A stretch of 64,000 nucleotides of DNA from Candidatus Nanoarchaeia archaeon (lineage in GTDB: Archaea > Nanobdellota > Nanobdellia > SCGC-AAA011-G17 > GW2011-AR18), in the NCBI GenBank assembly GCA_035289605.1, contig DATDWR010000022.1, forward strand, positions 45,295 through 109,294, written 5' to 3'. Below the pieces are notes generated by a model. That model did no database searches. It was not told where the DNA came from and saw nothing but the letters and a program-made list of their open reading frames with translations. Both the position numbers and the translations under genes were made by a program. This document shows, one piece after another, positions 2,989 through 38,472 of this stretch. Within the stretch, counting starts at the first letter, position 1. Each line of letters opens with the position of its first letter.

Positions 2989-5900
2989 TCACAATTTTTT
3001 TGTACTGTTATAGGATTTATAAGCCTTTGGGTAGTTGTATGGTATGTATCTTAGGTGTGGCAGAGTATTGTCTTTTTTCGGCCTTCTCCACTCCGTAAAG
3101 AATACTAGTGCGATTATTATAGTCATTAATAGCAGGAAGTTTAGTCCGTCTATTATTGGAAGCTTGACATCTATTGCAGGATTTATTTTTATTGGACCTT
3201 TTGTTGTTAATTTAATGTCCAGTTTTGGAACAGTTATTCCTCCTGTTGCATTCACGAATCTTATTAGTATCTCGCCTATGCCTTTTGTAGTGTTTAGTAT
3301 TAGGTCATATGATCCTCCTTCTCCTTTTGTGGAGTGTATTATTATAGCTCCTTCTTCAGTTTCTATTATCTTTGTCCCTTCAGGTATTTCTGCAGGTTTT
3401 TCAGGTTCTTGTGGTTCTTGCTGTGGTTCTTCTTGTAATGGTATTTGAGGTTTGGCATCTCCTCCTCCATTTCCATTTCCGCCACCTCCTCCTCCGCCTC
3501 CTTCACCGCCTCCTGATACTGGTGTTTCCTCGCTTGAATATGTAGTAAAGGTGTTGACTGAAAATGTAAATATGCCGCTCGAGTAGCTTATCTCTGTACA
3601 GCTTCCGCAGAAATCATAGGATCCGCTGTCCTGCAAATCTATTAATGGTCTTGGGTTTGTGAATGTTAGGCTGTTTATTGTTATATTAGCGCTTGTATTA
3701 AACGCCCAAGCTGCTGTGCTGTTCACCCTTACGAAATTGCTGTTTATTGCTATGTTTCCCGTAGTGTTTATAGCATTTTCTTTTGTGATGTTTACTGTAA
3801 TATTTTCATATCTTATGCTTCCGTTTTCGTTTCTTAGTGTTATATTTATGGCTGTAAAATTTGTATAGTTAATATAATATAGAAGCCCACTTGTTATATT
3901 AGTTAGTGTTGTGCCGTTTGCTCCTGCAAGATAGAAATCATATGATGTTGCATTTATTATTAAATCAGAGTAATTGGCATTTGTTGTGTCTACTGCATAT
4001 ATTCCTTTTCCTTCTTGTCCTGTAGATAGCAGAGTGCTGGATGTTATGTTTGTGCTTTTGGTTCCTGTTCCAAAGATTATTGCACTTGCATTATAGCCTG
4101 TGCTTTCAAATTTATTGTTGTTTATCCTGTTCTGGTTCGCTACATCTATATATAATATGTGGGAATTATTATTGTAGGTTGTTAGGTTATTGTCGCTTAT
4201 ATTATTCCTTAGTGTGCTTGACCTGAGGTATATTGCAGAAGATTCTACTCCTAATGTTGTTATGTTATTTGATATTATGAGATTTCCGCTGCTCTGCATC
4301 CTTATTCCGTGTGATGGCAGTCCAGTGCTTGTTGCACCTTCTGTGTAAATTATATTTTCTGTAACATTGTTGGCTCCTCCATCTCCGTTTAAGTCCAGTC
4401 CTGAAGTTATTGTAGTAGCGTAGCTGCGTATAACATTCTTAGTTATATTGTGATGAGAGACTCCAGTTAGCGCCAATGTGACAGTTGTAGAGCCAAACGA
4501 AGTTAGATTATTGAATGCTATGTTATTGTCCGCTATTGATCCTGAAGTTGACTGTGAAGCAAGTATCGCTTCTGCTGTTCCTCCAAATGTGGTTATATTA
4601 TTAGACAGAATGTTGTTAAATCTTGTCTGTCTTAATAGGTTTATGCCTTCTGCATTGCTTCCTGCAAGGGTTGTAAATGTAAAAATTATATTGTTTGTTA
4701 TGTTATTATAATCAGAAAAGAAGTTTGTTGATCCTATTCTATTTCCGGAAATTTTTATTCCAGCTGCACTTGTTCCGTTTGTCTCTATTTTGTTGTAAGA
4801 AATATTGGAGTTGCCGGTTTGGTTTAGCATTATTCCTGCACCATTAGTGAAGTTAATTAGAATTGTATTATTAAACACAACGCTGTTTGACGAATGATTC
4901 AATACTATACCATTCCTGAAATAGCTTACATTGCAGTTTTTGATGTAGCTGTCGCTTATGTTGTTAAACCATGCCCCTACTCCTGTTGTGTGGTTTCCAA
5001 GTATTTCGTAGCCGTTACAGTCAAATACTATGCTGCTGGCATTCAATATTATTCCGTCGCCATTGCATATATTTCCTCCTGTGCTGTTTATTATTCCTGC
5101 ATCTAGTGATATGTTCGTTGCTAAGTAGCTTCCGCATGTCAAATTTATTGTTGTGTAGTTGCTCAGTCCTGTAACATTAAAAATTCTCGGATTGTTGGAA
5201 ATTTTGTTGCAGCTTGGAGGTCTGCACTGCACATTATTTCTTAGGATAGTATAAGCATCTGTAGAGCTTGAGTTTGCATCATTGAATGTTATTGTTATTG
5301 AAGTGCTCCTGTTGTATATTTCTGAATTGTTTAGTATATTTGCATTGTTGCTGGTAAAATCTATGTCATTGGTTGTGTTGGACATGGTGTCAGATTCTAG
5401 TAATGTCATGTTAATTAAATTGATGTTTGTTGTTGAGTTTCCTAAGCTCAGATTATAGAATGTAGAATAAGACTCAACAATTGTTATCTTGCTGACTAGA
5501 TGATTGTCTAAAAATGTTATGTTTATTGATTTATTCAAGTAAATGTCTATTTGGCTGTTGTTTGATATTGTGTTGTTGGAGAAGCTAGCATTAGTCAATG
5601 CGCCTAGTGCAACACCGTAAGTGTTGTTGTATATTGTTGTGTTTATTATTGTTAGATTATACAAGTTTATCATTCTGGAGTTTATGCCGTAGAGTGAGCT
5701 TGTTATGTTGCAGTTTCTTATGAGCGTATTATTAAATCCTCCATCTATTAGTATGCTGCTGTTTGCGCTTGTCCCGTTTCCTTCTATTCTATTTCCCTGG
5801 CAGTCTAAAATAATATTGTTAGCTTTTATGTTTATGCAACTTCCATGTGAAGTTATATTGCTAGTTAGTTGTATTAAATTATTTGCCGTTGCTGCTGCAC

Positions 5901-6030
5901 TGTCACAGCTGCTACAAGTATCGCATGTTGCTGCTTCTGCATTAGCTGCTAGAATTAATATTAGAGAAAACAAAATTGTTGCAACTATATAAAATCTGTT
6001 CTCAGTTGTTAATTTATTTAAATTTATCAT
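2989..6030 (-). CDS. Giant cell-surface glycoprotein SP1: N-terminal signal/anchor, parallel beta-helix-like NxT/S-rich repeats, Gly-rich and P/E/Q-rich linker, C-terminal TM anchor
   Basis: 1013 aa. Hydrophobic N-terminus FYIVATILFSLILILAANAEA. Dozens of N-x-S/T sequons in short beta-helix-like repeats. Gly-rich tract GGGEGGGGGGGGNGNGGGDAKP followed by a P/E/Q-rich linker PQIPLQEEPQQEPQEPEKP. C-terminal helix LLLMTIIIALVFF followed by basic residues. Confidence 0.7.
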   Translation of the reverse strand: MINLNKLTTENRFYIVATILFSLILILAANAEAATCDTCSSCDSAAATANNLIQLTSNITSHGSCINIKANNIILDCQGNRIEGNGTSANSSILIDGGFNNTLIRNCNITSSLYGINSRMINLYNLTIINTTIYNNTYGVALGALTNASFSNNTISNNSQIDIYLNKSINITFLDNHLVSKITIVESYSTFYNLSLGNSTTNINLINMTLLESDTMSNTTNDIDFTSNNANILNNSEIYNRSTSITITFNDANSSSTDAYTILRNNVQCRPPSCNKISNNPRIFNVTGLSNYTTINLTCGSYLATNISLDAGIINSTGGNICNGDGIILNASSIVFDCNGYEILGNHTTGVGAWFNNISDSYIKNCNVSYFRNGIVLNHSSNSVVFNNTILINFTNGAGIMLNQTGNSNISYNKIETNGTSAAGIKISGNRIGSTNFFSDYNNITNNIIFTFTTLAGSNAEGINLLRQTRFNNILSNNITTFGGTAEAILASQSTSGSIADNNIAFNNLTSFGSTTVTLALTGVSHHNITKNVIRSYATTITSGLDLNGDGGANNVTENIIYTEGATSTGLPSHGIRMQSSGNLIISNNITTLGVESSAIYLRSSTLRNNISDNNLTTYNNNSHILYIDVANQNRINNNKFESTGYNASAIIFGTGTKSTNITSSTLLSTGQEGKGIYAVDTTNANYSDLIINATSYDFYLAGANGTTLTNITSGLLYYINYTNFTAINITLRNENGSIRYENITVNITKENAINTTGNIAINSNFVRVNSTAAWAFNTSANITINSLTFTNPRPLIDLQDSGSYDFCGSCTEISYSSGIFTFSVNTFTTYSSEETPVSGGGEGGGGGGGGNGNGGGDAKPQIPLQEEPQQEPQEPEKPAEIPEGTKIIETEEGAIIIHSTKGEGGSYDLILNTTKGIGEILIRFVNATGGITVPKLDIKLTTKGPIKINPAIDVKLPIIDGLNFLLLMTIIIALVFFTEWRRPKKDNTLPHLRYIPYNYPKAYKSYNSTKKL

Positions 6031-6548
6031 CTATTCCTCTTTTTTTTGGAGTTGTTGTATGCGGTCCAAACAGTCCTGTCATCTCTTTTGATGGCTAGCG
6101 CAATTTCGTGATAGCTAAATCTGAGATTTTCTTTTAAGTAAACAACAAGCGATTCTAGGGCAGATAACTCTGAATCTGCAAGAATTGCTACAGGTATTTG
6201 TATAGAATTTTTATCAATCGAAAGTTTTGATTTGTGTTTTTTCTTTGAATTGTCGAATGCATGCCAGATGTTTCTTTGGTCTCTTTTGAGCAGCCTAGAA
6301 ATATCGCATAGTGGAATATTACTTTCTTCTTTTAAGTATTTTACAACAGATTCTAGCACTGTTAATCTTTTGTTGAGAATTGAAACAGGAAAGCTTGCTT
6401 CCTGCTGTATTATCTGCAGTATTTCTTCATGCGATAAGCTATGCTTCTCTTTTAATGTAGAAATTAATTCTTTTATTTTTTTAATACTTAGTATATCATT
6501 CTTGTCTAATGCTGGATTAGTATGCCTAAAACCAGGTTTTTCCATCAA
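6027..6548 (-). CDS. Small DNA-binding protein with tandem sigma-70-region-4-like HTH repeats (HTH1)
   Basis: 173 aa. Two internal repeats, …LESVVKYLKEESNIPLCDISRLLKRDQRNIWHAFDNSKKK… and …LESLVVYLKENLRFSYHEIALAIKRDDRTVWTAYNNSKKKR…. The pattern LSYxEIA…TV…A.KK matches ECF sigma region 4. Stop overlaps the SP1 start by 4 nt. Paralogous to 27265..27828. Confidence 0.6.
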   Translation of the reverse strand: MMEKPGFRHTNPALDKNDILSIKKIKELISTLKEKHSLSHEEILQIIQQEASFPVSILNKRLTVLESVVKYLKEESNIPLCDISRLLKRDQRNIWHAFDNSKKKHKSKLSIDKNSIQIPVAILADSELSALESLVVYLKENLRFSYHEIALAIKRDDRTVWTAYNNSKKKRNR

Positions 6549-6570
6549 TTAATAGATTAAACAGAGTTTA

Positions 6571-6642
6571 AATAATTTACGTATTATATAAGTATAAAAA
6601 GCTTAATAAAAAATAATTTTACGTATTATATAAGTATAAAAA
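6571..6642. promoter_or_regulatory. Two copies of a ~30-bp direct repeat carrying the inverted repeat TACGTA-N5-TAAGTA plus TATA-like sequence, upstream of HTH1
   Basis: aataatttacgtattatataagtataaaaa at 6571-6600 and again at 6612-6642, with a 41-42 bp period. These lie 28-95 nt upstream of the HTH1 start. Same 6-5-6 palindrome type as the array at 27079-27260. Confidence 0.45.
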
Positions 6643-10718: not shown

Positions 10719-10848
10719 CGCCGACGCCAGGATTTGAACCTAGAATTCCTTGCGGAACTAGTTTACTATTCTGGATTCGAGATACATCAACAATCACATT
10801 GCAAGTAGCGAAAGTTTCTAGCGCCTTACCAGATTAGGCTACGTCGGC
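10719..10848 (-). tRNA. tRNA gene with non-canonical intron(s); anticodon not resolved
   Basis: Minus-strand read starts GCCGACG-UA-GCCU-AAUCUGGUA-AGGC-G and ends CUAGG-UUCAAAU-CCUGG-CGUCGGC-G. This gives a perfect 7-bp acceptor stem, a D-arm with GG, a T-arm with a UUCAAAU loop and discriminator G, followed by an oligo-T run. About 80 nt lie between the D- and T-arms, so one or two introns are implied. Confidence 0.55.
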
Positions 10849-21800: not shown

Positions 21801-23926
21801 TGTAGTGATCCTTGGCCTGCTATGCAGTCCCCGCCTCCATCGCCTGTGATATTTACATATATAGTATTAAGATAAATGCTGTTATTGTTTGCATTCTGTA
21901 TTTTTATTGCATCGCCTCCTCCTGAAAGCTTGTCTGAATTTGTCATTGTTATATTATTGTTGAAAAGAGAATTATTATTTGAATCTTGAAGCCATACGCC
22001 TATGTCTGTTCCATTAACCCCTATAATATTAGAAATTATATAAGTGTTATTAGAGCCTGTCTGCAGGTATATAGCGTGGCTCGTATTGTCTGTTCCGTTT
22101 ATTTTGTTGAATGTTATGTTATTATATAATGCCTGGCTTGTTGTAATTGCGTAAAAGCGTCCAGACTTTAGTCCTGTTGATATGCTGAAGTTATTGTTGT
22201 TTATTACTGTAAAGCTGGTGTTGCTTACTAGTTCTATAGCTGCCAGGCCTGTACTGCTGGAAGTATACCTTGTTATGTTAAAGAGATTGAAGCTGATATT
22301 AACATTTCTTGAGTTGGAGATGGATGCTATTCCGTATAATATATTGTTGTAAACTAAGTTATTGTCTGCCCTGTTTTGCATTCTTATGGTTATGTTGTTG
22401 CTGTCTATCATATCTATGGTGTTGTTCTCTGCAGTGATATTTCTAGAACCGTCTATGTCTATTCCTAGTCCTTTTCCTGCTATTGTATTGTTTGATATTG
22501 TTATGTTGGATCCGCTGACTTCTATGGCGCTGTCTGCTGTTGTTATTAGTGTTGACATGTTTATCACGTTGTATCTTAGCAGGCTGTTGTTCATGGCTGG
22601 TGATATAATCACTCCATTGGTATTGTCTCTTGTGACTATTAGTGTGTTGTTCTCAAAAGTGTGGTTTGTTCCTGATACAAACCTTACAAGATATCCTCCT
22701 GAAGGGTCTGAATTCGTGCTGAATATCTTATTATGCTTCATGACGCTGTGGTTGTTGTCTATTGATATGCCACTGGTGGTTGTTCCTGATGTTCCTGAGC
22801 CTATAGATGTAAAATTGGAGTTTACAGCATTAAATGTCGTGTTGGGATTTACTTCTATATAATAATTTTTAGTTCCGTCAGCTGTTAATGATGTCAATCT
22901 ACTGTAATTTATGCTTAGGTTGCCGTAATTTTGCAGGTAAAATTCTCCTGTGCTTGAGCTGTTGAAGTTTAATGACACATTGTAGATATTTAGTTCTCCT
23001 CCTGCTATGACTTTTATTATTGCTGTGGATATTACGAATCCTGTGGCATTGTCATAATTAAAAAATCTCGTGTTGTTGATTTCATTGTGTAGTGTCTGCA
23101 TTGTATTTCCTTTGCCTGTTACCTCTATTGTGCTTCCTGACAGGACACTCGGGTCTATTGTTACTGGAAATGAGAGTTGTTCAAACGGCGTGTCAATGAA
23201 CAGGTCAAGAAATAAGCCGTTCTCATTGGACCTGATTGCATATCTTGTATCTACTCTTCTTGGTGCTAGAACATATTGTATTATATCTCCTGATGAATTA
23301 GTTGTATTTATGGTATAGTTGTCATATCCGTATGGCTTGACTATTTCTAATGCCCTGATGTTTCCTATGCTTGTTCTTAAAACAACAGAGCCATGAGAAG
23401 ATGTATAGTTCAATGTATTTGTAACAATTTTGAAAGTAAAATTTCTAGGTGCTGTTCCATTGTGTAATGTTATTGTTTTTCTTATGCCGTATGGCAGAAC
23501 TTCATATTTTATGTCTGTGGCATTATAGGCATTATAGTAAGTTATTGTATTGTCTGTAACGTTTACACTAGTGATATTGTTATTGTTTATGAACTGCATT
23601 GTGATATTTCTTGAGGTTGATAATACTATTGCCTTTATTGTAAAGAATGATTCGTTCACGTCAACAGAGTCATCAAAATCCAGCGACAAAAATCTGCCCA
23701 GGCTGGCATTATAATTCATAATGCCTCCAGCTGATAATGTGGTATTGGCAGTTGCAGCTCCGAATCCCTGATATAGCGTTGATTGGCCGTAAACTGTTAG
23801 AGTGCTTATGATTAAAAAAAATAGGAATAAGAGAGCTAGGTATATTAGTGATTTTTTGTTGTTTGCATTGGCTTTCGTATTGTCGCAGTGCATTCCGCCT
23901 TTTTGATTTTTTATTTTCTTGCTCAT
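18863..23926 (-). CDS. Giant cell-surface glycoprotein SP3: signal anchor, beta-helix repeats, FG-GAP (integrin-alpha-like) repeats, Gly-rich linker, C-terminal TM anchor
   Basis: 1687 aa. N-terminal TM LIYLALLFLFFLIISTLTVYG. Very dense N-x-S/T sequons. Repeated DxDxDGxxD FG-GAP-like units (DIDRDGDTDLV, DADNDNDLDLV, DIDNDRDMDLA, DVNNDGKLDLA). Gly-rich linker GNGGGGGRSSGGGGQRG. C-terminal helix LITASGALLLMIALILA followed by a basic tail. Confidence 0.7.
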   Translation of the reverse strand: MSKKIKNQKGGMHCDNTKANANNKKSLIYLALLFLFFLIISTLTVYGQSTLYQGFGAATANTTLSAGGIMNYNASLGRFLSLDFDDSVDVNESFFTIKAIVLSTSRNITMQFINNNNITSVNVTDNTITYYNAYNATDIKYEVLPYGIRKTITLHNGTAPRNFTFKIVTNTLNYTSSHGSVVLRTSIGNIRALEIVKPYGYDNYTINTTNSSGDIIQYVLAPRRVDTRYAIRSNENGLFLDLFIDTPFEQLSFPVTIDPSVLSGSTIEVTGKGNTMQTLHNEINNTRFFNYDNATGFVISTAIIKVIAGGELNIYNVSLNFNSSSTGEFYLQNYGNLSINYSRLTSLTADGTKNYYIEVNPNTTFNAVNSNFTSIGSGTSGTTTSGISIDNNHSVMKHNKIFSTNSDPSGGYLVRFVSGTNHTFENNTLIVTRDNTNGVIISPAMNNSLLRYNVINMSTLITTADSAIEVSGSNITISNNTIAGKGLGIDIDGSRNITAENNTIDMIDSNNITIRMQNRADNNLVYNNILYGIASISNSRNVNISFNLFNITRYTSSSTGLAAIELVSNTSFTVINNNNFSISTGLKSGRFYAITTSQALYNNITFNKINGTDNTSHAIYLQTGSNNTYIISNIIGVNGTDIGVWLQDSNNNSLFNNNITMTNSDKLSGGGDAIKIQNANNNSIYLNTIYVNITGDGGGDCIAGQGSLQNRMYNNTFSKCFGYTITLDKGTNNSLIFMNNFTNKSNIIDDGFNNSWNTSSSEGGGNLWQEFDRPIEGCLDINTNDFCDIPVNVTNTTAKNVTNDYLPRISLLNLKELNVSTNLFDKTIDSDTNTSYTITIRNDGDGNQTENITVYVFNFNNADTAMFNDTSTNFTIRNIAGRGTSFETTLQVASKSIGNYTAGIRVNISNDALANSSINITTSIINIFFLQNFTFGDNLTALFKGAIIGGDVNNDSYNDVIIFGDSSSCTDYAVNRSADCFGKVFINNGTALAVNNSWGINLTGLGQPSGALADIDRDGDTDLVAMGRDANKTIYTQVFLNNGTSFAEDRVWGMNATDLYLGNVQLGYINEDGLIDLFITGCNSTSCPSSSGGVYTNNGTSFIYNNTYSNNITFLAFGSSIFTDADNDNDLDLVMSGCPSTNDESTNCGSGPFSQFYENNGTSYVTNSTWSVNFVSALASIASGDIDNDRDMDLAWYGYNGTVFRIIYQNNGSGFVRNTTWEVDLDTAARGEAQLGDVNNDGKLDLAVAGCNTGSSCSGTDIITKIYTNNGTSFASNSSLNNNLTALDFSVLLLMDLNNDTKLDMILTGNTSSQARSFVYTNKIENTNTRPNRPQLFFIDHSDNIINFSWTSGNDTETPNDGLYYRLRIGSSSGARDVISEVFGFSSKPAAGTFGNMQQMRNITLGLDNSKKYFWCVETIDTSFSSSGCATEWLFEPSTSAAKSSEGNGGGGGRSSGGGGQRGSLPPASNVLNIENAKRGSTINYKPENRELGIMEISFKPSIDIEGIKLQVIKKNVESENYIVYKAFEILAVKSQTNQIQPIEAKDIEMVFLVEKKFITNNKASPNDIKLFRLEGSKWVAKKTNYNGEENGNLKYTAQSDKLSLYLVGIERRKEPAEEETKTEYSKLETKEYAGGRFNTKKLIFYSLITASGALLLMIALILAHNKYNVDLDAIKAKKHYRVKLKK

Positions 23927-26292: not shown

Positions 26293-26490
26293 ATGATTAT
26301 TCCAATATGTTGTCTGGGCTGCGGCAAACCAGTAGCTCATTTATATGAGGATTTTAAAGATAGAACTTCTAAAGGAGAGCATCCTAAGAAAGTAATGGAT
26401 GAATTGGGTTTGGAAAGGTATTGTTGCAGGGCTTTGTTTATGGGCCATGTTGATCTTCTTGATACTGTGGCTAAATTCAAGAAAGCATAA
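26293..26490 (+). CDS. rpoN: DNA-directed RNA polymerase subunit N (Rpb10 homologue)
   Basis: 65 aa. MIIPICCLGCGKP…LGLERYCCRALFMGHVDLL is the RpoN zinc-bundle signature. Confidence 0.85.
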   Translation: MIIPICCLGCGKPVAHLYEDFKDRTSKGEHPKKVMDELGLERYCCRALFMGHVDLLDTVAKFKKA

Positions 26491-27078: not shown

Positions 27079-27260
27079 TACTTACATAATAAGTATATAT
27101 TACTTACTTATTAAGTAGATAAAACATAATAATAAATATAAATACTTACATAATAAGTATATAATTTTTTAATTTAATTATATATAATATTAAATGATTA
27201 TTACTTACAAAATAAGTAAAATAGATAAATTTATATATAAAATTACTTACTTAATAAGTA
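27079..27260. promoter_or_regulatory. Array of five inverted-repeat operators TACTTAC-N3-(A/T)TAAGTA (6-5-6 palindrome TACTTA-N5-TAAGTA) plus TATA box upstream of HTH2
   Basis: Units at 27079-27095, 27101-27117, 27143-27159, 27202-27218 and 27244-27260. TTTATATATA sits at about -35 to -26 from the ATG. The last unit lies between the TATA box and the start codon. Confidence 0.5.
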
Positions 27261-27264
27261 AAAA

Positions 27265-27828
27265 ATGAATAAAAGAGATAGATATAGTAATTTTTCTAGA
27301 GATTTTGCTAGTTCTAAAAATACAGAAGCAATAAATTTGTTCTTAAAGTTTTTAGAGAAAGAAAAAGATTATGCAAAGAATAATATCGAAGAAGTAATAG
27401 AAATTGTAAAAAATCTTGAAGAAAAAAAATCTTTCAATGGCTCTTTGCCTTGCAATATTTTCAATGTGAAGGAACTAAGTTCTTTAGAAATAATAGCGAA
27501 ATATATCAGGGAGGAATTTAGTCTTTCTTATCATGAAATTGCAGTAATCCTTAACAGAGACGATAGGACTATTTGGTCAACTTACAATAATTCTCTTAAA
27601 AAATATAACAGAAAACTTGAGTGGCAGGGATCAAAATATTTTATTCCTGTTTCAATATTCAAAGATAGGGTATTCGGGGTTTTGGAATTAATTTGCGAAT
27701 ATCTGAAGGATAATTTTTCTCTTTCATACCATGATGTAGCTGTGATTGTAAACAGGAATGATAGGACTGTGTGGACTGCATATCAAAGGGCTAAGAAAAA
27801 GAGGTTAAATGAAAAACTACGACGCTAA
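27265..27828 (+). CDS. Small DNA-binding protein with tandem sigma-70-region-4-like HTH repeats (HTH2, paralogue of 6027..6548)
   Basis: 187 aa. Repeats …LEIIAKYIREEFSLSYHEIAVILNRDDRTIWSTYNNSLKKY… and …LELICEYLKDNFSLSYHDVAVIVNRNDRTVWTAYQRAKKKR…. The 3' end overlaps the SP2 start by 20 nt. Confidence 0.6.
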   Translation: MNKRDRYSNFSRDFASSKNTEAINLFLKFLEKEKDYAKNNIEEVIEIVKNLEEKKSFNGSLPCNIFNVKELSSLEIIAKYIREEFSLSYHEIAVILNRDDRTIWSTYNNSLKKYNRKLEWQGSKYFIPVSIFKDRVFGVLELICEYLKDNFSLSYHDVAVIVNRNDRTVWTAYQRAKKKRLNEKLRR

Positions 27829-30800
27829 AAGAGAAGCAGCTGGGCTGAGAAGGGAGATTCAGCTTATTGAGAACAGAAAGTTAGAGGTAGTTAATGCAGT
27901 TGAATCTCTAAGAAACCAGTATTATCAAGGATTGTTAGGATATGAAGATTACAAGGAAAGAATTAATAGGTCGCTGCAGGGACTTACTCCAAGGCAGACT
28001 CTTGACAAGTATAACGAGCAGATAAGGTCATGTAAAGAAAAGATTTCAAGACTTGAAAGCGTAAGAAGTGGTGTGCAGTTAAATGGTAACGTGCTTGTAG
28101 TTGTATTACTTCTTGTTGCTGCTCTGTCTTCAGTTCTTATATTGGCGAATGCAAAGTATGACTTGTTTGGTTTAGATAGTCCTGTAGGTTTCGTAGTTAA
28201 GGATGTTACAAATGATTCATTACTAAATATAACAGAAATAGTGCCAAAACCAGAAAATAATATTTCAATTAAGGATAGTGGGGAACCTGTAATAAATGAA
28301 ACCCTGAATAATATGACAGAGTCAGTGCTTGCGCAAGAGAAAAATATCTCTAAAGAAAGTGAAAATGTAACTGTAGAAGAAAATAAAACAAAATCAGAAG
28401 ATAAAAAGAAATACAGTATAGATAATGCAACAATACCTGAGGTTCCTGAGTTTGTAAAATCTAATAAATCTATAAAGGAAATTGTTGATGAAGTAGGAAT
28501 AAGTGTCCCTGTAGAAAAGATAGTGAGTATAGACAGGCTTAGTTTTGCAGCAGATGAGATAACAGTTAAAGGAAAAGATCTTAAAACATTGGTGATACAT
28601 AAGCCTATTATCTATGGAAAATCTTTCGGAGAAGCTATACCTTTAGTAGAAAAAGACGACTTTACATATGCGGCATCACTTGAGGACACTGCTGTAGAAC
28701 TTGAATTTGATTCTCCAGAAATAAAGAATGATAAGTTAGGAAGAAAATTCAGGCAGAGCAAAATATTAGGTGATCCTTCTTGGAAGATAGGATATAATTA
28801 CTTGCTTCCTGCAGGAGACTTTAATGCCACAGTAAGGTTCAGCTCAAGCACACCTATTAATGTTGAAGATAAATATTATGGAAGGTTTGTAACAGGTAAG
28901 TTTACTTTGGATTTTGGAGCTGAAAGAGAAAATGGATTTAATATAGAAATAGAGCAGGTGCACAGCAATATTGTTTACATTAGCCTTATTAAAAATTACA
29001 CAGATGCAGGACTCAAGCCTAATGACGAAGTATTCATTGATCCTACATTATCTATTAGTAGTCTTGTATATTTATGTGGAGAAGTCATTGACTATGATAA
29101 GATAGAAGTTATGAGTAATGGTATTCTTGGTATATGCAACAGAACAGCTACTAATCCTACAGGTTATGTTAATATTACTTTGGATAATGGAATCGAGGGT
29201 AATTTTACTGTTCATCCTTCTGGAAGGATAGGTGGTGGTGGTGCTGGAGGCAGAGCAGGTGCTGGAGAGGTAACTGCTGCAACATGTTCTACTCGAGGAG
29301 AGAATAATACAGGCCAGACAGGTGCTGCTGGTTGCGTAGCCAACTGGGGAGGAGGTTCTGGCACGCAGAGAGCATCTACAGGCGATAGTGCAGGTGGCGG
29401 AGGTGGAGGTTTTGGAGGTGCTGGAGGCAGGGGAGGTCGTAGTGCAGCTGATGAAGGTTATGTTCCTTCCAACGTTACAGGATCTGCTGATGATACATAT
29501 TTGTTTATGGGTGCTGGTGGTGGTGGAAGCAATGGTGATAATCCAGCAGCAGCAGGAGGTCCTGGAGGTGGGGGTATTAAGATAAGTGCAGGTGCTGGAT
29601 GGATCGGTATTAGAGGTATACTTAATGTTTCAGGACAGAATGGTAGTAATGGTGATGGTACTGATAATTCTGGAGGTGGAGGCGGCAGCGGAGGTCACGT
29701 TATATTAAGTGCAAAGACTATTCTTATGGATTCTAATACCAAGATTTTCGCTCATGGTTCTGGCGGTGGAATTGCTGGAGGAACTGGAGATGCCTGCGGT
29801 GGTGGAAGTGGTGGTGGCGGAAGAGTATTGTTTATTTATGAGTCTCTTTCAAACACTAGTTCGTTTGTATCAATTTATGGAGGTGTAGCTCAACTAGCTA
29901 ATTCAGATGCTGCATGCGATGCTGCTTCAGATCCTGGAGATCCAGAAGCAGGTGGAATTGGTAGCGTTTTGTATAATTCAACAACTACAACATTTGCAGA
30001 CTATCCTAGACCATTATTGAACAACCCCACAGATAATGAAGTAATTGTTGCAAAATCTAGTGTTAATATTAGTTTCAACTTTACTCCTATGATTGGGGAT
30101 AATAATTTTAAGAGTGCTACAATTTATGCAGATTGGAACAAGGGAGTGTTCGGAGCGAATAACACAAACAGAACTGCATTAACTAGCGGGTCAAATACAA
30201 TTATTAATGTTTCAGGTATAGCTAATGGTACTTGGACTTGGAATGTTTATATTTGTGATGAAGCAAATAACTGCAGGTTTAACAGTACTAATTATACTTT
30301 AGTGTTCAATAATGCTCCTAATATAACAAATGTATCTATACTGCCTGCTGATACAAATACTAGTGATACTTTGCTTGCAAATATAAGTGGTTTGTTTGAC
30401 TTTGATGGAGATAATATGGTGGAGGTTAATAATGTGAGTTATAACTGGTATGTTAACCAGACGCCTTTATTGCTGTTAAATATGCCTTTCACTAATCACA
30501 TTTATTCCAAGGATAATTTTACAACATTTGACTTTAGTGATAATGTGTTAGCAGGAACAGTGTATGCTGCTAAGCAGGGTACTTATGGTTCTGGACTGCC
30601 TAAATATACTACAGACAACTGTACTATTGGTGGCTGCTACAGGTTTAACGGCACTAATTATATTAACATTAGCGATCCTTTAAACAAAACTTTGGGAATG
30701 AGAGACTGGAGTATATTGTTCTGGTATGATGCAGAGCAGAGTAGAGTTATAGATGAGATAGCATTAGGCAGTTGGAATGTAGTTTACTCTAGAAGAGAGG

Positions 30801-33250
30801 GAATAAATGATGCAGCATTTATTGGTTTAGAAGTTCAAGTTGGAAGAGATTATCTTAGTGGAGGTAATGCAGCAAACTTTATTGTATTCGTTTATTACAG
30901 AAACAGGACATTGAGTGGGGATAACCTAAAATTCAGGGACACTTCTGCAGCAAACAAAACTAGGTTTATAGCTATACTGAGAGATGGAGATACAGGAAAT
31001 ACTAGTGTTTTATTCAATGGTACATCAATAGATAGCCAGAGTGGTATATTCGGCCCGCTTGTAAATAATATTACTACTTTATATTCAACTTTAGGTATTC
31101 CATCAATATCAGGTTCTGGAGGCAGAGGATTAAATGGTACAATTGACGAGTTCCAGATATATAATAGAACATTAAGTGTTGAAGAAGTTTACCAGATATA
31201 TAACAACGGTAAGGGCAATTACAGTTTAATGGTTCAGGAAGAAACAGCAGTGGATGAAGTCTGGAATGTTACAGCAGTTCCAGTTGATAAAACAGGTGCG
31301 AATGGATCAATGGTTAGGTCCACTAGTGTTACAATTATAAGTACAGACCCTCCGACAGTTAATTTAAATTACCCTATTTCAATAATACCCGGAACAAAAC
31401 CTACCATAATTGATCCTAGATTTAATATTAGCTTTAATTTCACGCCTACAGCAGGAGGTAACAGTTTAAAGAATGCAACTATTTGGGGTAACTGGAGTAA
31501 TGGCGTACAAAAACCGAATGCTACAAACATTTACTCATTGGAAAATAATGCTCCTTCATATATTAACGTCTCAGGCATTCCTAATGGTACTTGGTCATGG
31601 ACAGTTTACGTATGCGATACAGCACATCGTTGTGCATACAATACATCAAATGTAACATTTGTTGCAAATAATGCGCCTAATATTTCCATTGTTAAAATAC
31701 TTCCTTCAGATATATCTGTGGGAGATAATTTAACAGCAAACTTAACAAAACTTGTAGATGAAGATGGAAACTATCAGGTTAACCATAACAATATTAGTTA
31801 TAATTGGTACAACAATCAGACATCAATTACCTTGCTTAATGTACCATTTACTAATCCAATATATTCAAAGGATAATTTTTCAACATTTGATTTCAGCGGC
31901 TACAATCACAATTTATCCTCTTATGACCTGGCATGGGATGCTTCCACTGGTGCCCAATATACAAATGAGAACTGTACAATTGGAGGTTGTTATAGATTCA
32001 ACGGAAGTATAGATTCATTCTTGCAGATAAGGAATATTACAGGAGTAGGGGCTCCAAATGAATTGTTGGGAATGGTAAATTGGAGTATGATATTTTGGTA
32101 TGATCCTGAAGGAAAGGTAAGAGATAACGTTGATGGAAACGAGAGAATAATATATGATGCAAGCGGCGGCACACCTACAGGATATAGTCCTAGAGTGGCA
32201 ACTCTTCTAAACTCGCCTCAACTACAAATAAAAGTATACATAACAAACACAAGTCTTGACCAGTTTTCCGCAACATTTTCTTCAAATCCTCAGCTTGGCA
32301 ATCCTCAAAAGAAGTTTATTGCTGTAATAAGAAATGGAAATACTGGTAACGTTACTGTCATATTTAATGGGACACAATCAACAAGTTCATCTGCATCTTA
32401 TGGTCCTATGGTTAATGCTACATGGTTGGATGGTTCAGTGATTACTATAGGAGGAAAATCAGGAGGAACTAATGACGATATTAATGGCACTCTTGATGAG
32501 TTCATGATTTTTAACAGAACTTTGACTCCTGAGCAGGTCTATGAATTTTATAATAACCATATCGGTAATTACAGCAAGATAGTAAACCAAGAGTTGAAAG
32601 CAGGAGAAATTTGGAATGTTACAGCAGTTCCTATTGACAATGATGGACTGAATGGTTCAATGATCAGATCAGCAAATATAACTATACCTACTGCGGCACA
32701 GCCTACAGCAATATCTTGCATATGGAGTGATGCAGCATTAAACATTAGTTTCGGTGAAGGATTATCTCAGTCCTTATCCCAAGGAGTTATATATAATGCT
32801 TCTAAGAACTTCGAAGGTTATATTGGTGGAAGCAATCAAAATGTAGGTATTAACTGGACCCATTATAATGTGACAGCAGACTCTACAAATACAGCTCCAG
32901 TTAACATAACTATAAAGGGAGATCATTTATTGTCAGGATCAAATGTTTTGGGTATTACAAACATTACTTGGATGACTAATGAAACTAATGGTAATGCTAC
33001 AGATGTGTCTGGAGAGTTATGGAACTTCACATATTTGGGCAAGAACGTGAAAGATTCAAACTTTGAGGGATTCAACTTGACTTTAATAAAAGATGGTGAT
33101 CCTAAGTTGGCAGTAAGAAACAGGAACTTCTCAAACCAGTTGACAGCAGGAAGCAGTATGTGGTACAGGTTTTGGCTGCATGTTCCTACAGCTCAGATAC
33201 AGGGAAGTTATGTGGGTAATTACACAATGGAGTGCAGTGCAGCATCATAA
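27809..33250 (+). CDS. Giant cell-surface glycoprotein SP2: N-terminal coiled-coil + signal anchor, Gly-rich region, two tandem ~430-aa modules each ending in a LamG/ConA-like lectin domain
   Basis: 1813 aa. TM VLVVVLLLVAALSSVLILANA follows about 95 charged residues. Gly-rich tracts (GGGGAGGRAGAGE…, GGGGGGFGGAGGRGG…). Duplicated modules NNAPNI(T/S)…YNWY(V/N)NQT…CTIGGCYRFNG…W(S/M)I(L/F)FWYD…DEF(Q/M)I(Y/F)NRTL(S/T)(V/P)E(E/Q)VY(Q/E)(I/F)YNN… carry the LamG-type LDEV(R)IYNRALS-like motif. Confidence 0.7.
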   Translation: MKNYDAKREAAGLRREIQLIENRKLEVVNAVESLRNQYYQGLLGYEDYKERINRSLQGLTPRQTLDKYNEQIRSCKEKISRLESVRSGVQLNGNVLVVVLLLVAALSSVLILANAKYDLFGLDSPVGFVVKDVTNDSLLNITEIVPKPENNISIKDSGEPVINETLNNMTESVLAQEKNISKESENVTVEENKTKSEDKKKYSIDNATIPEVPEFVKSNKSIKEIVDEVGISVPVEKIVSIDRLSFAADEITVKGKDLKTLVIHKPIIYGKSFGEAIPLVEKDDFTYAASLEDTAVELEFDSPEIKNDKLGRKFRQSKILGDPSWKIGYNYLLPAGDFNATVRFSSSTPINVEDKYYGRFVTGKFTLDFGAERENGFNIEIEQVHSNIVYISLIKNYTDAGLKPNDEVFIDPTLSISSLVYLCGEVIDYDKIEVMSNGILGICNRTATNPTGYVNITLDNGIEGNFTVHPSGRIGGGGAGGRAGAGEVTAATCSTRGENNTGQTGAAGCVANWGGGSGTQRASTGDSAGGGGGGFGGAGGRGGRSAADEGYVPSNVTGSADDTYLFMGAGGGGSNGDNPAAAGGPGGGGIKISAGAGWIGIRGILNVSGQNGSNGDGTDNSGGGGGSGGHVILSAKTILMDSNTKIFAHGSGGGIAGGTGDACGGGSGGGGRVLFIYESLSNTSSFVSIYGGVAQLANSDAACDAASDPGDPEAGGIGSVLYNSTTTTFADYPRPLLNNPTDNEVIVAKSSVNISFNFTPMIGDNNFKSATIYADWNKGVFGANNTNRTALTSGSNTIINVSGIANGTWTWNVYICDEANNCRFNSTNYTLVFNNAPNITNVSILPADTNTSDTLLANISGLFDFDGDNMVEVNNVSYNWYVNQTPLLLLNMPFTNHIYSKDNFTTFDFSDNVLAGTVYAAKQGTYGSGLPKYTTDNCTIGGCYRFNGTNYINISDPLNKTLGMRDWSILFWYDAEQSRVIDEIALGSWNVVYSRREGINDAAFIGLEVQVGRDYLSGGNAANFIVFVYYRNRTLSGDNLKFRDTSAANKTRFIAILRDGDTGNTSVLFNGTSIDSQSGIFGPLVNNITTLYSTLGIPSISGSGGRGLNGTIDEFQIYNRTLSVEEVYQIYNNGKGNYSLMVQEETAVDEVWNVTAVPVDKTGANGSMVRSTSVTIISTDPPTVNLNYPISIIPGTKPTIIDPRFNISFNFTPTAGGNSLKNATIWGNWSNGVQKPNATNIYSLENNAPSYINVSGIPNGTWSWTVYVCDTAHRCAYNTSNVTFVANNAPNISIVKILPSDISVGDNLTANLTKLVDEDGNYQVNHNNISYNWYNNQTSITLLNVPFTNPIYSKDNFSTFDFSGYNHNLSSYDLAWDASTGAQYTNENCTIGGCYRFNGSIDSFLQIRNITGVGAPNELLGMVNWSMIFWYDPEGKVRDNVDGNERIIYDASGGTPTGYSPRVATLLNSPQLQIKVYITNTSLDQFSATFSSNPQLGNPQKKFIAVIRNGNTGNVTVIFNGTQSTSSSASYGPMVNATWLDGSVITIGGKSGGTNDDINGTLDEFMIFNRTLTPEQVYEFYNNHIGNYSKIVNQELKAGEIWNVTAVPIDNDGLNGSMIRSANITIPTAAQPTAISCIWSDAALNISFGEGLSQSLSQGVIYNASKNFEGYIGGSNQNVGINWTHYNVTADSTNTAPVNITIKGDHLLSGSNVLGITNITWMTNETNGNATDVSGELWNFTYLGKNVKDSNFEGFNLTLIKDGDPKLAVRNRNFSNQLTAGSSMWYRFWLHVPTAQIQGSYVGNYTMECSAAS

Positions 33251-33316: not shown

Positions 33317-34171
33317 ATGGAAATAGTGAATAAAAATGGATACTATTATTTGAAGCATTCTTATAGGAAAAATAATAAAATTGTAACAAAAGAGAAATAT
33401 CTTGGAAAAGTAATACCTGAAAATATTGAAAAACTAAAAAAAGAGTTACAAAGTGAAAGTAAAAAATTAGTATATGAGAAAATTAGAAGAATCAGGAATA
33501 ATTATAAAAAAGAATGGAATAAATATCCTCATTCTGTAAAAAGAGAGTTATTAATAAATCTCTCAGTAAATTTTACATACAATACTAATGCGATAGAAGG
33601 CTCACCGATAACAAAGGAAGAAACAGAAGATATAATAAAAAGAAAAATAGCCCCAAATAGGTCGCTGGACGATATTAAGGAAACTATAAATCATTCAAAA
33701 ATTTTTCTTGATATGTTGAATGAAAAGAAAGAATTAAGCCTGCAATTAATATTAAAATGGCATAAAGGAATATTCCTAGAATCTAAGCCTGATATTGCTG
33801 GCAAATTAAGGGATTATAATGTAAAAGTAGGGGAATATAGATGTCCTGATTGGCAGGACGTAAAGAACTTTACAGATAAATTTCTAAATTGGTATAATAA
33901 AAATAAATATAAAGAACATCCTGTAGAGCTAGCCGCACTTATGCATTACAAATTTGTCAAAATACATCCTTTTGGCGATGGCAATGGGAGAATTGCAAGA
34001 GTTATAACAAACTTTATTCTTCATAAATATAAATATCCATTAATTATTATAGATTATAAAAATAGGAGGTCTTATTATAAAGCACTTAAAAAAGCTGACT
34101 CTAAGGGGGAATATGAATTTATAAAATATTTTATTCGGAGATACTTATCTGATTATAAAAGATATTTATAA
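33317..34171 (+). CDS. Fic-domain protein (AMPylase family)
   Basis: 284 aa. Canonical Fic motif HPFGDGNGRIAR and upstream …TNAIEGS…. Confidence 0.8.
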   Translation: MEIVNKNGYYYLKHSYRKNNKIVTKEKYLGKVIPENIEKLKKELQSESKKLVYEKIRRIRNNYKKEWNKYPHSVKRELLINLSVNFTYNTNAIEGSPITKEETEDIIKRKIAPNRSLDDIKETINHSKIFLDMLNEKKELSLQLILKWHKGIFLESKPDIAGKLRDYNVKVGEYRCPDWQDVKNFTDKFLNWYNKNKYKEHPVELAALMHYKFVKIHPFGDGNGRIARVITNFILHKYKYPLIIIDYKNRRSYYKALKKADSKGEYEFIKYFIRRYLSDYKRYL

Positions 34172-34231
34172 TAAAAAATAGAAAAATTTAGTCAGATATA
34201 AGATTAATAATTATCCAAGCAATAGTAAAAC

Positions 34232-34486
34232 TTGAATACCAATATGACAACAAAGACAATTAAGAGTGTAGATGATGAGGTTTGGTATAAATTTAGGTTT
34301 CTTGCTGTTAAAAATAGGCTTGGAATGGGAAAATTATTGGGAGAGATGATAAATGAGTATGAATTTAAGTCAAAAGAATTTTGGAAAGAAATTCTAGAAG
34401 GTGAGAGATTATTAACAGACAAGGAAGCGTCTGAATTATTAAGCGAAATAAAAAAATCAAGAAAAGAGCATGGATTTAGAAAATGA
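34232..34486 (+). CDS. Putative antitoxin partner of downstream PIN toxin
   Basis: 84-aa small charged protein. Its stop overlaps the start of the PIN gene (ATGA). Fold not assignable from sequence. Confidence 0.4.
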   Translation: MNTNMTTKTIKSVDDEVWYKFRFLAVKNRLGMGKLLGEMINEYEFKSKEFWKEILEGERLLTDKEASELLSEIKKSRKEHGFRK

Positions 34487-34875
34487 GCCTAATTTTTGAT
34501 AATTCTGTATTAATAGAGCTAGAAAGAAGAAACACAATTATAATAGACAAAATAAAAACGTATGTAGAAATTTACCCATCGCCTGCAGGTATTACATTTA
34601 TTAATTATTTTGAATTTTATCACTGCCTGAAAAACAAAGAGATTAAAAATAAAGAAAAAGCAATGTCTTTTATTAATAAATTCAATGTGCTTAAAGTAAC
34701 AAAAAAAACTGCAGAAATATTAAGTGAATTGAAAAAGGAATGTAAAAATAAGGGAGAAATGCTGCCATTAGCAGATTTATTGATTGCAAGCCAGGTTATA
34801 GAGAATAATTGTGTTTTAGTGACTCTGGATAAGGATTTTAAGAGGATAGAAAAATTAAATAAACTAATTTTATAA
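34483..34875 (+). CDS. vapC: PIN-domain toxin (VapC-like)
   Basis: 130 aa. MSLIFDNSVLIEL… and …LADLLIASQVIENNCVLVTLDKDF… fit the PIN acidic-residue pattern. Confidence 0.65.
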   Translation: MSLIFDNSVLIELERRNTIIIDKIKTYVEIYPSPAGITFINYFEFYHCLKNKEIKNKEKAMSFINKFNVLKVTKKTAEILSELKKECKNKGEMLPLADLLIASQVIENNCVLVTLDKDFKRIEKLNKLIL

Positions 34876-37680: not shown

Positions 37681-38472
37681 ATGCTAAATAAGGGAGGTAT
37701 AATTAAGTTTCTGGCTGTTTTAACTATAATTGTTTTTAGCACATTTGTTTTTTCATTGAATAATTCCATGACAGGAAAAATTATTACAGAAGCTCCTGAT
37801 TTGGTTTTGGCTGATTTGGGTGTAAATATTCATGATAAGGGTTATAATAAGCCTTTTCTAGCTAACAGGGTTGTTGCTGTTGTATGCAATAATGATAGAA
37901 GATATGCAGTTTCTAATTTTGATGTCAGGTTTTATTTGCATGGTAGATTGATTAATGAGCTTAAGAACGGCAGGTTGGAGCCTAGTGAGTGTTCTGATGT
38001 TAGTGTTCCGTTCAAGCCGTATTTGGAGAATGTTAGGTATGTTGACGCATTTGCTATTGTGGATCCTGCAAATAGGATTTTAGAGACTAATGAGAATAAT
38101 AACAGGTTCAGGTCAGTATTAAATCTTTCATTGTACGGCCCTAATTTGGAAATTTCAGATGTTGATCTGGTGGATTCACAAAATTTCAATGATATAATAT
38201 TTAGAGTAAGGTTCTGTAATACTTCTCCAAAAGTCTCTGTCAAGAACAGATTTTATGTTGGTGTAATGATAGATGGTATTAAAAGGCAGTTTCAGTATCC
38301 TGTAAATTTGCCCCCGAATAGCTGTGATAATTTATACACAACATCTTTAGAGGGTTTTGGTATACAAAGGAAAAGCGAGGTTTTTGTGGAAACAGTTGTA
38401 GACTTCACAAACTTCGTTGTAGAATCTGAGGAGAATGATAATTATTTTTCAAGAAAATTCAGTCTGGACTAA
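37681..38472 (+). CDS. Secreted protein with two CARDB-like domains
   Basis: 263 aa. Signal/anchor FLAVLTIIVFSTFVFSL. Repeats of the …DPANRILETNENNNRF… / …VVESEENDNYF… type characteristic of CARDB domains. Confidence 0.5.
   Translation: MLNKGGIIKFLAVLTIIVFSTFVFSLNNSMTGKIITEAPDLVLADLGVNIHDKGYNKPFLANRVVAVVCNNDRRYAVSNFDVRFYLHGRLINELKNGRLEPSECSDVSVPFKPYLENVRYVDAFAIVDPANRILETNENNNRFRSVLNLSLYGPNLEISDVDLVDSQNFNDIIFRVRFCNTSPKVSVKNRFYVGVMIDGIKRQFQYPVNLPPNSCDNLYTTSLEGFGIQRKSEVFVETVVDFTNFVVESEENDNYFSRKFSLD

Follow-up and report, generated by a model that had tools for sequence, protein, structure and literature searches.

We analyzed a 64,000-nt stretch of archaeal DNA, hereafter the window (contig DATDWR010000022.1 of assembly GCA_035289605.1, positions 45,295 to 109,294 of the forward strand), in which an initial annotation, made from the letters alone, had drawn attention to a gene encoding a giant surface protein, SP2. 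Immediately upstream of the SP2 gene, and overlapping its start, lies a gene for a small protein with two helix-turn-helix (HTH) repeats, and this gene is itself preceded by an array of palindromes. We found that SP2 begins with a conserved module predicted to lie in the cytoplasm and that, among related archaeal proteins, this module and the tandem-HTH protein are found together, either encoded by adjacent genes or fused in a single polypeptide. The features of the locus, in window coordinates, are listed here; P numbers denote related proteins and L numbers denote related loci.

27079..27260 (no strand assigned): five 17-bp palindromes TACTTA-N5-TAAGTA at 27079-27095, 27101-27117, 27143-27159, 27202-27218 and 27244-27260, a putative operator array of the tandem-HTH protein (read directly; pattern search)
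27265..27828 (+): tandem-HTH protein, 187 aa, two sigma70-region-4-like HTH repeats, presumed operon regulator; overlaps the SP2 start by 20 nt
27809..28084 (+): SP2 aa 1-92, conserved cytoplasmic N-terminal module (conserved in P0002, P0003, P0004 and ~100 of the 150 top representatives)
28085..28153 (+): SP2 aa ~93-115, single transmembrane signal-anchor helix (NVLVVVLLLVAALSSVLILANA), N terminus inside (Kyte-Doolittle peak; positive charges on the N-terminal flank)
28154..28420 (+): SP2 aa 116-204, post-membrane motif, then a variable sequon-rich stalk (alignments, sequon positions)
28421..29038 (+): SP2 aa 205-410, conserved "mid" ectodomain (conserved in P0002, P0003 and P0126-P0135)
29039..30013 (+): SP2 aa 411-735, Gly-rich domain, from IDPTL to the ACDA motif (AlphaFold2 model, family profile)
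30014..31360 (+): SP2 aa ~736-1184, module 1, consisting of beta-rich domain A, the NNAPNI..YNWY segment, a LamG_3 domain and a WNVTAVP..TI tail (self-similarity, Pfam)
31361..32710 (+): SP2 aa ~1185-1634, module 2, in the same order as module 1 (self-similarity, Pfam, profile A9)
32711..33250 (+): SP2 C-terminal domain of ~179 aa ending ..YVGNYTMECSAAS, then stop (translation; P0130 has the same type of end)

Reading frame, topology and N-terminal module of SP2

The SP2 open reading frame (ORF) at 27809..33250 starts with ATG and runs without interruption to give a product of 1813 aa. As the initial annotation had stated, there is a single N-terminal transmembrane helix: a Kyte-Doolittle scan identified one hydrophobic helix in the whole protein, at aa ~94-115, with a peak of 3.16 in a 19-residue window. 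The protein ends ..GNYTMECSAAS, with neither a C-terminal membrane segment nor an HTH domain, and it does not qualify as a PGF-CTERM/archaeosortase substrate, having no hydrophobic segment at its C terminus. SP2 is composed of 11% Gly and 10.5% Asn and is also rich in Ser and Thr. It carries 93 N-x-S/T sequons, compared with 30 expected from its composition, and all but one of these (at residue 53) lie beyond the membrane helix. This placement fits a protein with a cytoplasmic N terminus and a glycosylated ectodomain.

The ~90 residues ahead of the membrane helix are conserved in each of the first distant full-length homologs to be found (P0002, P0003 and P0004; 35-40% identity), and tblastn aligned residues 1-528 of P0002 to window positions 27809-29380 with 39% identity. 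The charged segment of ~92 aa ahead of the helix, pointed out in the initial annotation, is thus genuine and conserved from residue 1. The same annotation had proposed an alternative GTG start near 28073, under which SP2 would be secreted by way of a classical, cleavable signal peptide and the upstream 88 codons would go untranslated. A GTG is indeed present at 28073, just ahead of the hydrophobic stretch, but the protein sequence encoded by the 88 upstream codons is conserved in the distant homologs and in ~100 representative proteins, and the overlap of the ATG at 27809 with the end of the upstream gene resembles the arrangement in 79 of 86 related cassettes, in which the next ORF begins within 30 nt. 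Because the homologs align with SP2 from residue 1, we reject the GTG start, to which we attach almost no probability, and regard the long cytoplasmic N terminus of SP2 as a genuine, conserved domain. With the conserved ATG, the only hydrophobic helix begins at aa ~94, whereas the hydrophobic core of a classical cleavable Sec signal peptide would lie within the first ~30-40 residues.

To characterize the family, we searched a profile of the N-terminal 735 residues of SP2 against 1.84 billion representative proteins, 1355 of which matched at E <=1e-3. Local splitting of this profile resolved three separable modules, namely, the N-terminal module with the membrane helix, the "mid" domain and the Gly-rich domain. 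Among the best 150 of the 1355 representatives, ~100 are headed by the N-terminal module, the consensus of which is LE..K.EL...I..CE..KKKII..V..L...Y..G.ISY.EY...L...L.GRT.EEWI.YYD.YI..C, followed by the helix and then by PTGF.V. In SP2 the module (aa 1-92) consists of 34% K/R/E/D, with a net charge of +5, and is probably helical; Gly/Pro at positions 41-44 and 58-61 interrupt it, so that it is probably broken into three or four helices. The description of this segment as a coiled coil in the initial annotation was not confirmed. In a heptad test, the best 28-residue window (aa 7-34) was equaled by 8.8% of shuffled sequences (p~0.09), and the matches of aa 1-92 in Pfam were all below threshold. 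One of these, between DUF1707 (SHOCT-like) and aa 30-55, had an E value of 0.15 and a score of 12.6 bits against a cutoff of 27.6, which does not amount to membership in a SHOCT-like family.

Immediately beyond the N-terminal hydrophobic segment, on its outer side, is a conserved motif. At least 70% of 100 family representatives have PTGF.V there, and SP2 has PVGFVV, at aa ~120-130 (nt ~28166-28198). An ITG(K/R)A-like motif is found at the equivalent place in other secreted proteins of these archaea (window 37681-38472, L001 13426 and L002 11506). The post-membrane motif may be a processing or sorting signal.

Domains of the SP2 ectodomain

The motifs quoted in the initial annotation (GGGGAGGRAGAGE, GGGGGGFGGAGGRGG, GGPGGGG, NNAPNI..YNWY, CTIGGCYRFNG and DEF(Q/M)I(Y/F)NRTL) are all present in SP2. 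A tiled self-comparison of the protein revealed one tandem duplication, in which aa ~700-1184 match aa ~1149-1634 at an offset of 450-453 residues. The two modules had been described as near-identical and ~430 aa long; the duplication itself was confirmed, but overall identity between the copies is 46-50%, reaching 55-62% locally, and the repeat length is ~450-453 aa.

Each module contains a Laminin_G_3 domain, as had been suggested. The Pfam Laminin_G_3 model matched the whole of SP2 with an E value of 4.5e-16, and each copy scanned alone exceeded the gathering score of 27.6, the first (aa 947-1127, nt 30647-31189) with 33.5 bits and the second (aa 1414-1577, nt 32048-32539) with 47.6 bits. 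We then built a profile, A9, from nine sequences (the LamG segment of SP2 and its relatives) and searched it against all PDB sequences. The top match was 4QVS, an S-layer domain-containing protein (E 7e-16 over ~210 positions), followed by matches that included the lectin-like domain of an arabinanase (5HON, E 2e-11) and pentraxins, the N-terminal domain of tetanus toxin Hc and the lectin domains of sialidases (E <=1e-5). All of the PDB matches have ConA-like lectin folds, and no other fold was represented, so that the LamG blocks of SP2 are ConA-like by homology. Compared with these solved domains, which include the arabinanase structure 5HO0 and which match over ~210 positions with E values from 7e-16 to 1e-5, the SP2 domains are longer (~215-250 aa, with insertions), and each sits within a conserved module of ~450 aa, flanked by beta-rich segments.

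Contrary to the initial annotation, LamG is not the last part of either module. In both, it is followed by a conserved tail of ~50 residues, WNVTAVP.D..G.NGSM.RS..(I/V)TI, and the arrangement hints that LamG may be inserted into another beta domain. The "Ig/cadherin-like" label given to the segment ahead of LamG found no support, since neither domain A nor the NNAPNI..YNWY segment had a Pfam match at E <=5, whether to Ig-like, cadherin-like or Big families or to any other; joining the pre-LamG and post-LamG segments, as a test for a split Ig-like domain, likewise gave no Pfam match at E <=5. Domain A is homologous to repeats in P0002, for which Big_3_3 reached a summed score of 29.5 bits, barely past the threshold and with no single stretch passing. 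A homolog search with module 1 returned one relative only, P0005, in which the order within the module is the same as in SP2. When the C-terminal domain of SP2 was compared with the Ig-like pair conserved at the C termini of P0002, P0003 and P0004, which we had suspected of being its counterpart, hhalign detected no similarity.

Between the stalk and the LamG modules lie two further domains. The "mid" domain had no significant Pfam match. The Gly-rich domain is an autonomous module that is also found alone, in one to three copies, in giant proteins of up to 6006 aa. AlphaFold2 modeled it with high confidence from a 37-sequence alignment (pLDDT 90.7, pTM 0.91). In the model, short beta strands are arranged as rung-like triplets (domain aa 9-71, then IKISAGAGWIGIRGILNVSG, HVILSAKTILMDSNTKIFAHG and RVLFIYESLS), and between the rungs run long, confidently placed Gly-rich segments, totaling >100 residues, that DSSP assigns to neither helix nor strand. 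"Solenoid-like," the term used in the initial annotation, is a fair description of the modeled domain, but this does not place the domain in a known beta-helix family, and Foldseek against PDB found nothing significant (best matches E 1.4, TM <0.2). The nearest of these nonsignificant neighbors are the beta-helix adhesins tapirin, HxuA, Ag43 and Hap, with which the model shares short beta rungs and a solenoid-like form, although the >100 ordered Gly-rich residues without alpha or beta structure set it apart from the solved beta-helices. Foldseek against BFVD, a set of predicted viral structures, gave matches with E values of 2e-9 to 1e-5 and TMq of up to 0.55, and these were predicted Gly-rich proteins of prasinoviruses, a pandoravirus, an orpheovirus and phages.

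Sequence searches of the Gly-rich domain against Pfam and PDB sequences, with the single sequence, with a 4-sequence profile and with each of the 37 family members individually, returned either nothing or spurious Gly linkers; Gly_rich_2 (PF21722) was touched by 1 of the 37 members, with an E value of 0.008. A likeness to ALK/LTK-type or phage gp38-type polyglycine-II domains was supported by no search, and we do not claim it.

One relative, P0151 (1978 aa), has the Gly-rich domain followed by two LamG modules, in the same order as in SP2. It does not have the N-terminal module and carries a phage tail-fiber-like Gp53-like_C domain upstream instead. This architecture implies that the Gly-rich domain and the LamG modules move as a unit between different anchors.

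The tandem-HTH partner, the upstream palindromes and the wider locus

The 187-aa protein encoded upstream of SP2 matched Pfam Sigma70_r4_2 with 35.1 bits against a cutoff of 25.7 (E 1.1e-8). It has 184 homologs, all of them small proteins of Woesearchaeota or Nanoarchaeota. Members of the family also show weak matches to the transposase-type models HTH_23 and HTH_38, and one source labels a member "transposase."

Two of the distant homologs of SP2, P0002 and P0004, end in ~160 aa that are homologous to this 187-aa protein; that is, the tandem HTH is fused onto the giant protein. Of the 150 best representatives, 25, including P0002 and P0004, start with the N-terminal module and finish with a tandem HTH. 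All of the fused forms share one junction design, in which the ectodomain ends Q.YST..G.W.I and is followed by 10-17 hydrophobic residues, a polybasic run (for example, RKKKKTK) and the HTH domain. The positive-inside pattern of this junction, together with the fact that a DNA-binding domain has to lie in the cytoplasm, suggests that the fused forms would cross the membrane a second time. Unfused relatives end directly after W.I.I.

Where a giant protein has the N-terminal module and no fused HTH, its gene is immediately preceded by the HTH gene and overlaps it; this was so in all six contexts that we read (the window, P0003, P0126, P0130, P0161 and P0163), and locus L007 shows the same arrangement. 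The pattern also holds when viewed from the HTH genes, in 79 loci from GTDB species genomes. A same-strand ORF followed the HTH gene within 30 nt in 79 of 86 usable cases, and 30 HTH genes overlapped the following ORF by 4 nt. Of the 79 following ORFs, 36 are giant, and a hydrophobic segment stands at the start of 70.

The palindromes, too, are associated with the HTH genes. The proximal copy at the SP2 locus (27244-27260) ends 4 nt ahead of the HTH start codon. A pattern search of the 64-kb window returned 11 matches compared with 0.96 expected, 10 of them upstream of one of the two HTH genes that the window contains (the second is described below). Elsewhere, the palindrome was found upstream of an HTH gene or a fused giant gene in seven of eight independent loci, as well as in three further loci that we read. 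Across the 79 GTDB loci, 192 of 324 matches fell within the 2.4% of the sequence that lies just upstream of HTH genes, a ~25-fold enrichment. This specificity for HTH cassettes argues against a general promoter element. The consensus derived from 113 sites is TACTTACATA(A/G)TAAGTA, and the distances between copies tend toward whole helical turns (31-32, 41-42, 52, 62 and 73 bp). The two half-sites, with centers ~11 bp or about one helical turn apart, would fit a monomer with two HTH repeats. Palindromes were confined to the region upstream of the HTH gene, with none on the far side of the cassette.

The junction of the fused forms (P0002, P0004 and P0171-P0272) resembles a tripartite sorting signal, although, unusually, a domain of ~160 aa comes after it. 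Cleavage at this junction would set the HTH domain free.

The wider window contains the following further features, including a second, paralogous HTH cassette.

2989..6636 (-): second paralogous HTH cassette (tblastn, translations, palindrome matches, Pfam Beta_helix)
6578-6594 and 6620-6636 (-): palindromes TACGTAttataTAAGTA of the second cassette, 42 bp apart
6027-6548 (-): tandem-HTH gene of the second cassette, 173 aa
2989-6030 (-): 1013-aa surface protein of the second cassette, with a signal peptide, Beta_helix and a C-terminal membrane segment; 4-nt overlap with the HTH gene
10719-10848 (-): tRNA spanning 130 nt (Rfam 42.8 bits; not reported by ARAGORN), probably an intron-containing archaeal tRNA
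18863-23926 (-): further giant surface protein, 1687 aa, with a signal peptide, Beta_helix/NosD, FG-GAP repeats, a PGF-pre-PGF domain and a C-terminal membrane anchor; no HTH gene upstream
33317-34171: Fic/DOC protein directly downstream of SP2 (Pfam Fic, E 3e-23)
34232-34875: 84-aa ORF and PIN-domain (VapC-like) protein
37681-38472: secreted CARDB-domain protein, 263 aa (Pfam E 1.2e-13)

An RpoN/Rpb10-type ORF at 26293-26490 is 83% identical to the RNA_pol_N gene of a metagenome-assembled genome of Candidatus Woesearchaeota (GCA_016179945.1), and the two share the gene order NYN-NUDIX..RpoN..HTH..giant. Together, these observations identify the organism as archaeal, a DPANN archaeon of the Woesearchaeota type.

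At homologous loci, a conserved trio of secreted or membrane proteins (~310, ~200 and ~500 aa) is encoded downstream of the giant gene (L001 13426-16575, L002 11506-14542 and L003 7106-10452). The trio is absent from the window, where the Fic/DOC gene and the VapC-like PIN pair (33317-34875) stand in its place as a small toxin-antitoxin-type islet. The ~310-aa protein of the trio is a free-standing, signal-peptide-bearing copy of the two-domain C-terminal end of the giant protein, including ..QQSYST..G.WT(I/V)GII, and may serve as that protein's partner or subunit. The N-terminal module showed no significant similarity to the cytoplasmic tail of the ~500-aa proteins (E 0.14).

Many contigs from Woesearchaeota have a pair of HTH cassettes separated by 5-7 kb (L010, L015, L024, L029, L036, L054, L057, L069 and L070). 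In these, the first HTH gene is often followed by a gene for a ~190-240-aa protein with a long cytoplasmic N terminus and one membrane helix, and the second is followed by one for a giant protein with a signal peptide.

Interpretation and comparison with known systems

We consider it probable, on the whole, that SP2 is a giant, heavily N-glycosylated surface adhesin anchored in the membrane in the type II orientation, with its N terminus inside, and that its operon is autoregulated by the HTH protein, possibly with feedback from the membrane. The parts of this proposal differ in strength. The architecture, topology and surface location of SP2 are very likely to be as described here. Its role as a lectin or adhesin, predicted from its domain content, is somewhat better than an even bet, and we hold the view that the HTH protein is a palindrome-binding regulator of the cassette with about the same measure of confidence. 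Direct contact between the N-terminal module of SP2 and the HTH protein is a tentative suggestion, in which our confidence is well short of even.

Mechanistically, the stalk and the Gly-rich domain would hold the LamG modules away from the cell, where they may bind glycans on the surface of a host or partner. The two HTH repeats would act as a pseudodimer, each reading one half-site of TACTTA-N5-TAAGTA, and in this way the HTH protein would autoregulate the HTH-SP2 operon. More speculatively, the cytoplasmic module of SP2 might bind the HTH protein and tether it at the membrane, an arrangement reminiscent of anti-sigma factors or transmembrane transcription regulators, and such tethering could feed the amount of adhesin, or its engagement, back to its own transcription.

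A number of observations weigh against this proposal. Glucanases and purely structural domains likewise belong to the ConA-like superfamily. An AlphaFold2 model of module 2, built on an alignment of only three sequences, was unusable (pLDDT 29.5), and a tandem-HTH profile detected no relative among PDB sequences. SP2 does not have some of the consensus residues of the N-terminal module, for example, the W and the YY. The hydrophobic stretch that precedes the HTH domain in the fused relatives, at 10-17 residues, fails the 19-residue Kyte-Doolittle test and is so short that we infer, rather than observe, a two-pass topology for these proteins. Most of the proteins encoded downstream of HTH genes that begin with a hydrophobic segment (49 of 70) have ordinary signal peptides and no N-terminal module, and the second cassette of the window also pairs an HTH gene with a signal-peptide protein that has no such module; the HTH protein, which thus also precedes module-less surface proteins, does not need the module. 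Finally, binding of the HTH protein to the palindromes and of the module to the HTH protein is inferred from co-occurrence, fusion and position only.

The main competing explanation is that SP2 simply serves as a structural or adhesive protein of the envelope, unconnected with signaling, that the HTH protein is an ordinary local regulator and that the N-terminal module serves only to anchor, oligomerize or sort the protein, for example, as a SHOCT-like oligomerization tail or as a docking site for a secretion or glycosylation machine. The many HTH genes that precede surface proteins without the module are as this explanation would have it, as are the weak SHOCT-like match at aa 30-55 (E 0.15) and the existence of some short proteins (~190-240 aa) that carry the module and are not giants. 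It accounts less well for the pairing of the module with the HTH domain in every case examined, in the 25 fusions as in the six upstream genes, given that parts which repeatedly fuse and split in evolution are classically taken to interact functionally. We regard this explanation as unlikely, although it is the best placed of the alternatives.

Considerably less probable, in our estimation, is an enzymatic or substrate-capturing function, in which the ConA-like modules and the beta-rung domain would serve in polysaccharide degradation or carbohydrate scavenging and would not be host adhesins. Laminin_G_3 does belong to the ConA-like lectin/glucanase superfamily, the profile matches do include domains of an arabinanase and of sialidases, and pectate lyase and isopullulanase are among the nearest PDB neighbors of the Gly-rich model. 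However, we detected no catalytic family of glycoside hydrolases or lyases anywhere in SP2 with Pfam or NCBIfam, the matched parts of the arabinanase and sialidases are their noncatalytic, lectin-like domains, and the fold matches to pectate lyase and isopullulanase are not significant (E >1).

More improbable still is the idea that the cassette is a device for variation or mobility, with the tandem HTH as a transposase-derived, paired-type DNA-binding domain and the palindromes as recombination sites for shuffling or switching surface-protein genes: the transposase-type matches and the "transposase" label, the multicopy palindromes, the presence of several cassettes per genome (sometimes 5-7 kb apart) and the highly variable ectodomains are outweighed by the lack of any recombinase or transposase catalytic domain in the HTH proteins (~130-190 aa) or adjoining them in the loci read, by the location of the palindromes on one side of the cassette and by the synteny of the flanking housekeeping genes between genomes.

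Giant surface proteins with LamG domains are a known kind of protein in DPANN archaea. Large N-glycosylated proteins with LamG/ConA-like domains have been proposed as host attachment factors in other members of this group (PMC7443923, on Nanohaloarchaeota; PMC5498576); described examples are the laminin-G locus of ARMAN Mia14 (PMC5498576) and the SPEARE proteins of Nanohaloarchaeota (PMC6642349). SP2 resembles these giants in its very large size, its occurrence in small symbiotic archaea, its dense sequons, its organism-specific variable ectodomain and its proposed role in host attachment. Unlike the SPEARE proteins, it has no serine protease or restriction endonuclease domain detectable with Pfam or NCBIfam, and a cytoplasmic module, a Gly-rich beta-rung domain and an obligatory tandem-HTH partner are not mentioned in PMC7443923, PMC5498576 or PMC6642349.

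A second point of comparison is provided by the transmembrane transcription regulators of the ToxR/CadC type and ArnR/ArnR1 of Sulfolobus (surveyed in PMC10269533; see also PMC6396743). The fused relatives of SP2 are like these regulators in uniting within a single chain a DNA-binding HTH domain, a membrane segment and an extracytoplasmic domain and in having a surface-structure gene as their apparent target. They differ in that the HTH domain is C-terminal, the small sensor domain is replaced by an adhesin-like array of 800-2,800 aa, both ends would be cytoplasmic and the second membrane segment is unusually short. These relatives commonly carry three to five LamG_3 domains, together with beta-helix domains. 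SP2 itself, the HTH of which is a separate protein, falls outside the definition of a transmembrane transcription regulator, whereas the 25 fused relatives come within it, with the qualification that their second hydrophobic segment is short.

The third comparison is with bacterial pairs of extracytoplasmic function (ECF) sigma and anti-sigma factors, in which a small gene with a region-4-type HTH is followed by an overlapping gene for a membrane protein with a cytoplasmic N terminus of ~90 aa, one helix and an extracytoplasmic domain. The HTH-SP2 pair shares this gene order and topology and also looks like an autoregulated operon, but the likeness is one of analogy and not of membership. The HTH protein, unlike an ECF sigma factor, has two region-4-like repeats and no region 2, and its scores with the NCBIfam sigma factor models are far below the cutoffs. 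The N-terminal module of SP2 has neither the ZAS HxxxCxxC signature of anti-sigma factors nor a match to an anti-sigma family in Pfam. The archaeon that carries SP2, unlike the bacteria that have ECF systems, is not known to have sigma factors.

In the searchable literature, we found no description of the conserved cytoplasmic module, of its obligatory coupling to a tandem HTH by fusion or adjacency, of a conserved operator or of this Gly-rich fold, which has no solved relative. With its confident model, its lack of a neighbor among solved structures and its recurrence in archaeal giants and in proteins of giant viruses and phages, the Gly-rich domain makes an attractive candidate for structure determination.

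We have also considered a more far-reaching possibility, namely, a DPANN-wide system in which the giant adhesin doubles as a contact sensor. The cytoplasmic module, and in fused forms the membrane tether, would keep the HTH protein at the membrane until engagement, shedding or proteolysis of the lectin-bearing ectodomain on a host frees or activates it to act on TACTTA-N5-TAAGTA. We think this rather unlikely as matters stand. If true, it would constitute an archaeal analog of anti-sigma or Notch-type signaling and would tie host attachment to gene expression in episymbiotic archaea. How DPANN archaea recognize and respond to their hosts is largely unknown, and giant, fast-evolving surface proteins are the usual suspects, although they have so far been treated as passive adhesins. 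The locus described here offers a concrete, testable regulatory unit, comprising a protein, an operator and a target, for organisms in which almost no regulation has been characterized, and the HTH-adhesin unit is a candidate route from surface contact to transcription.

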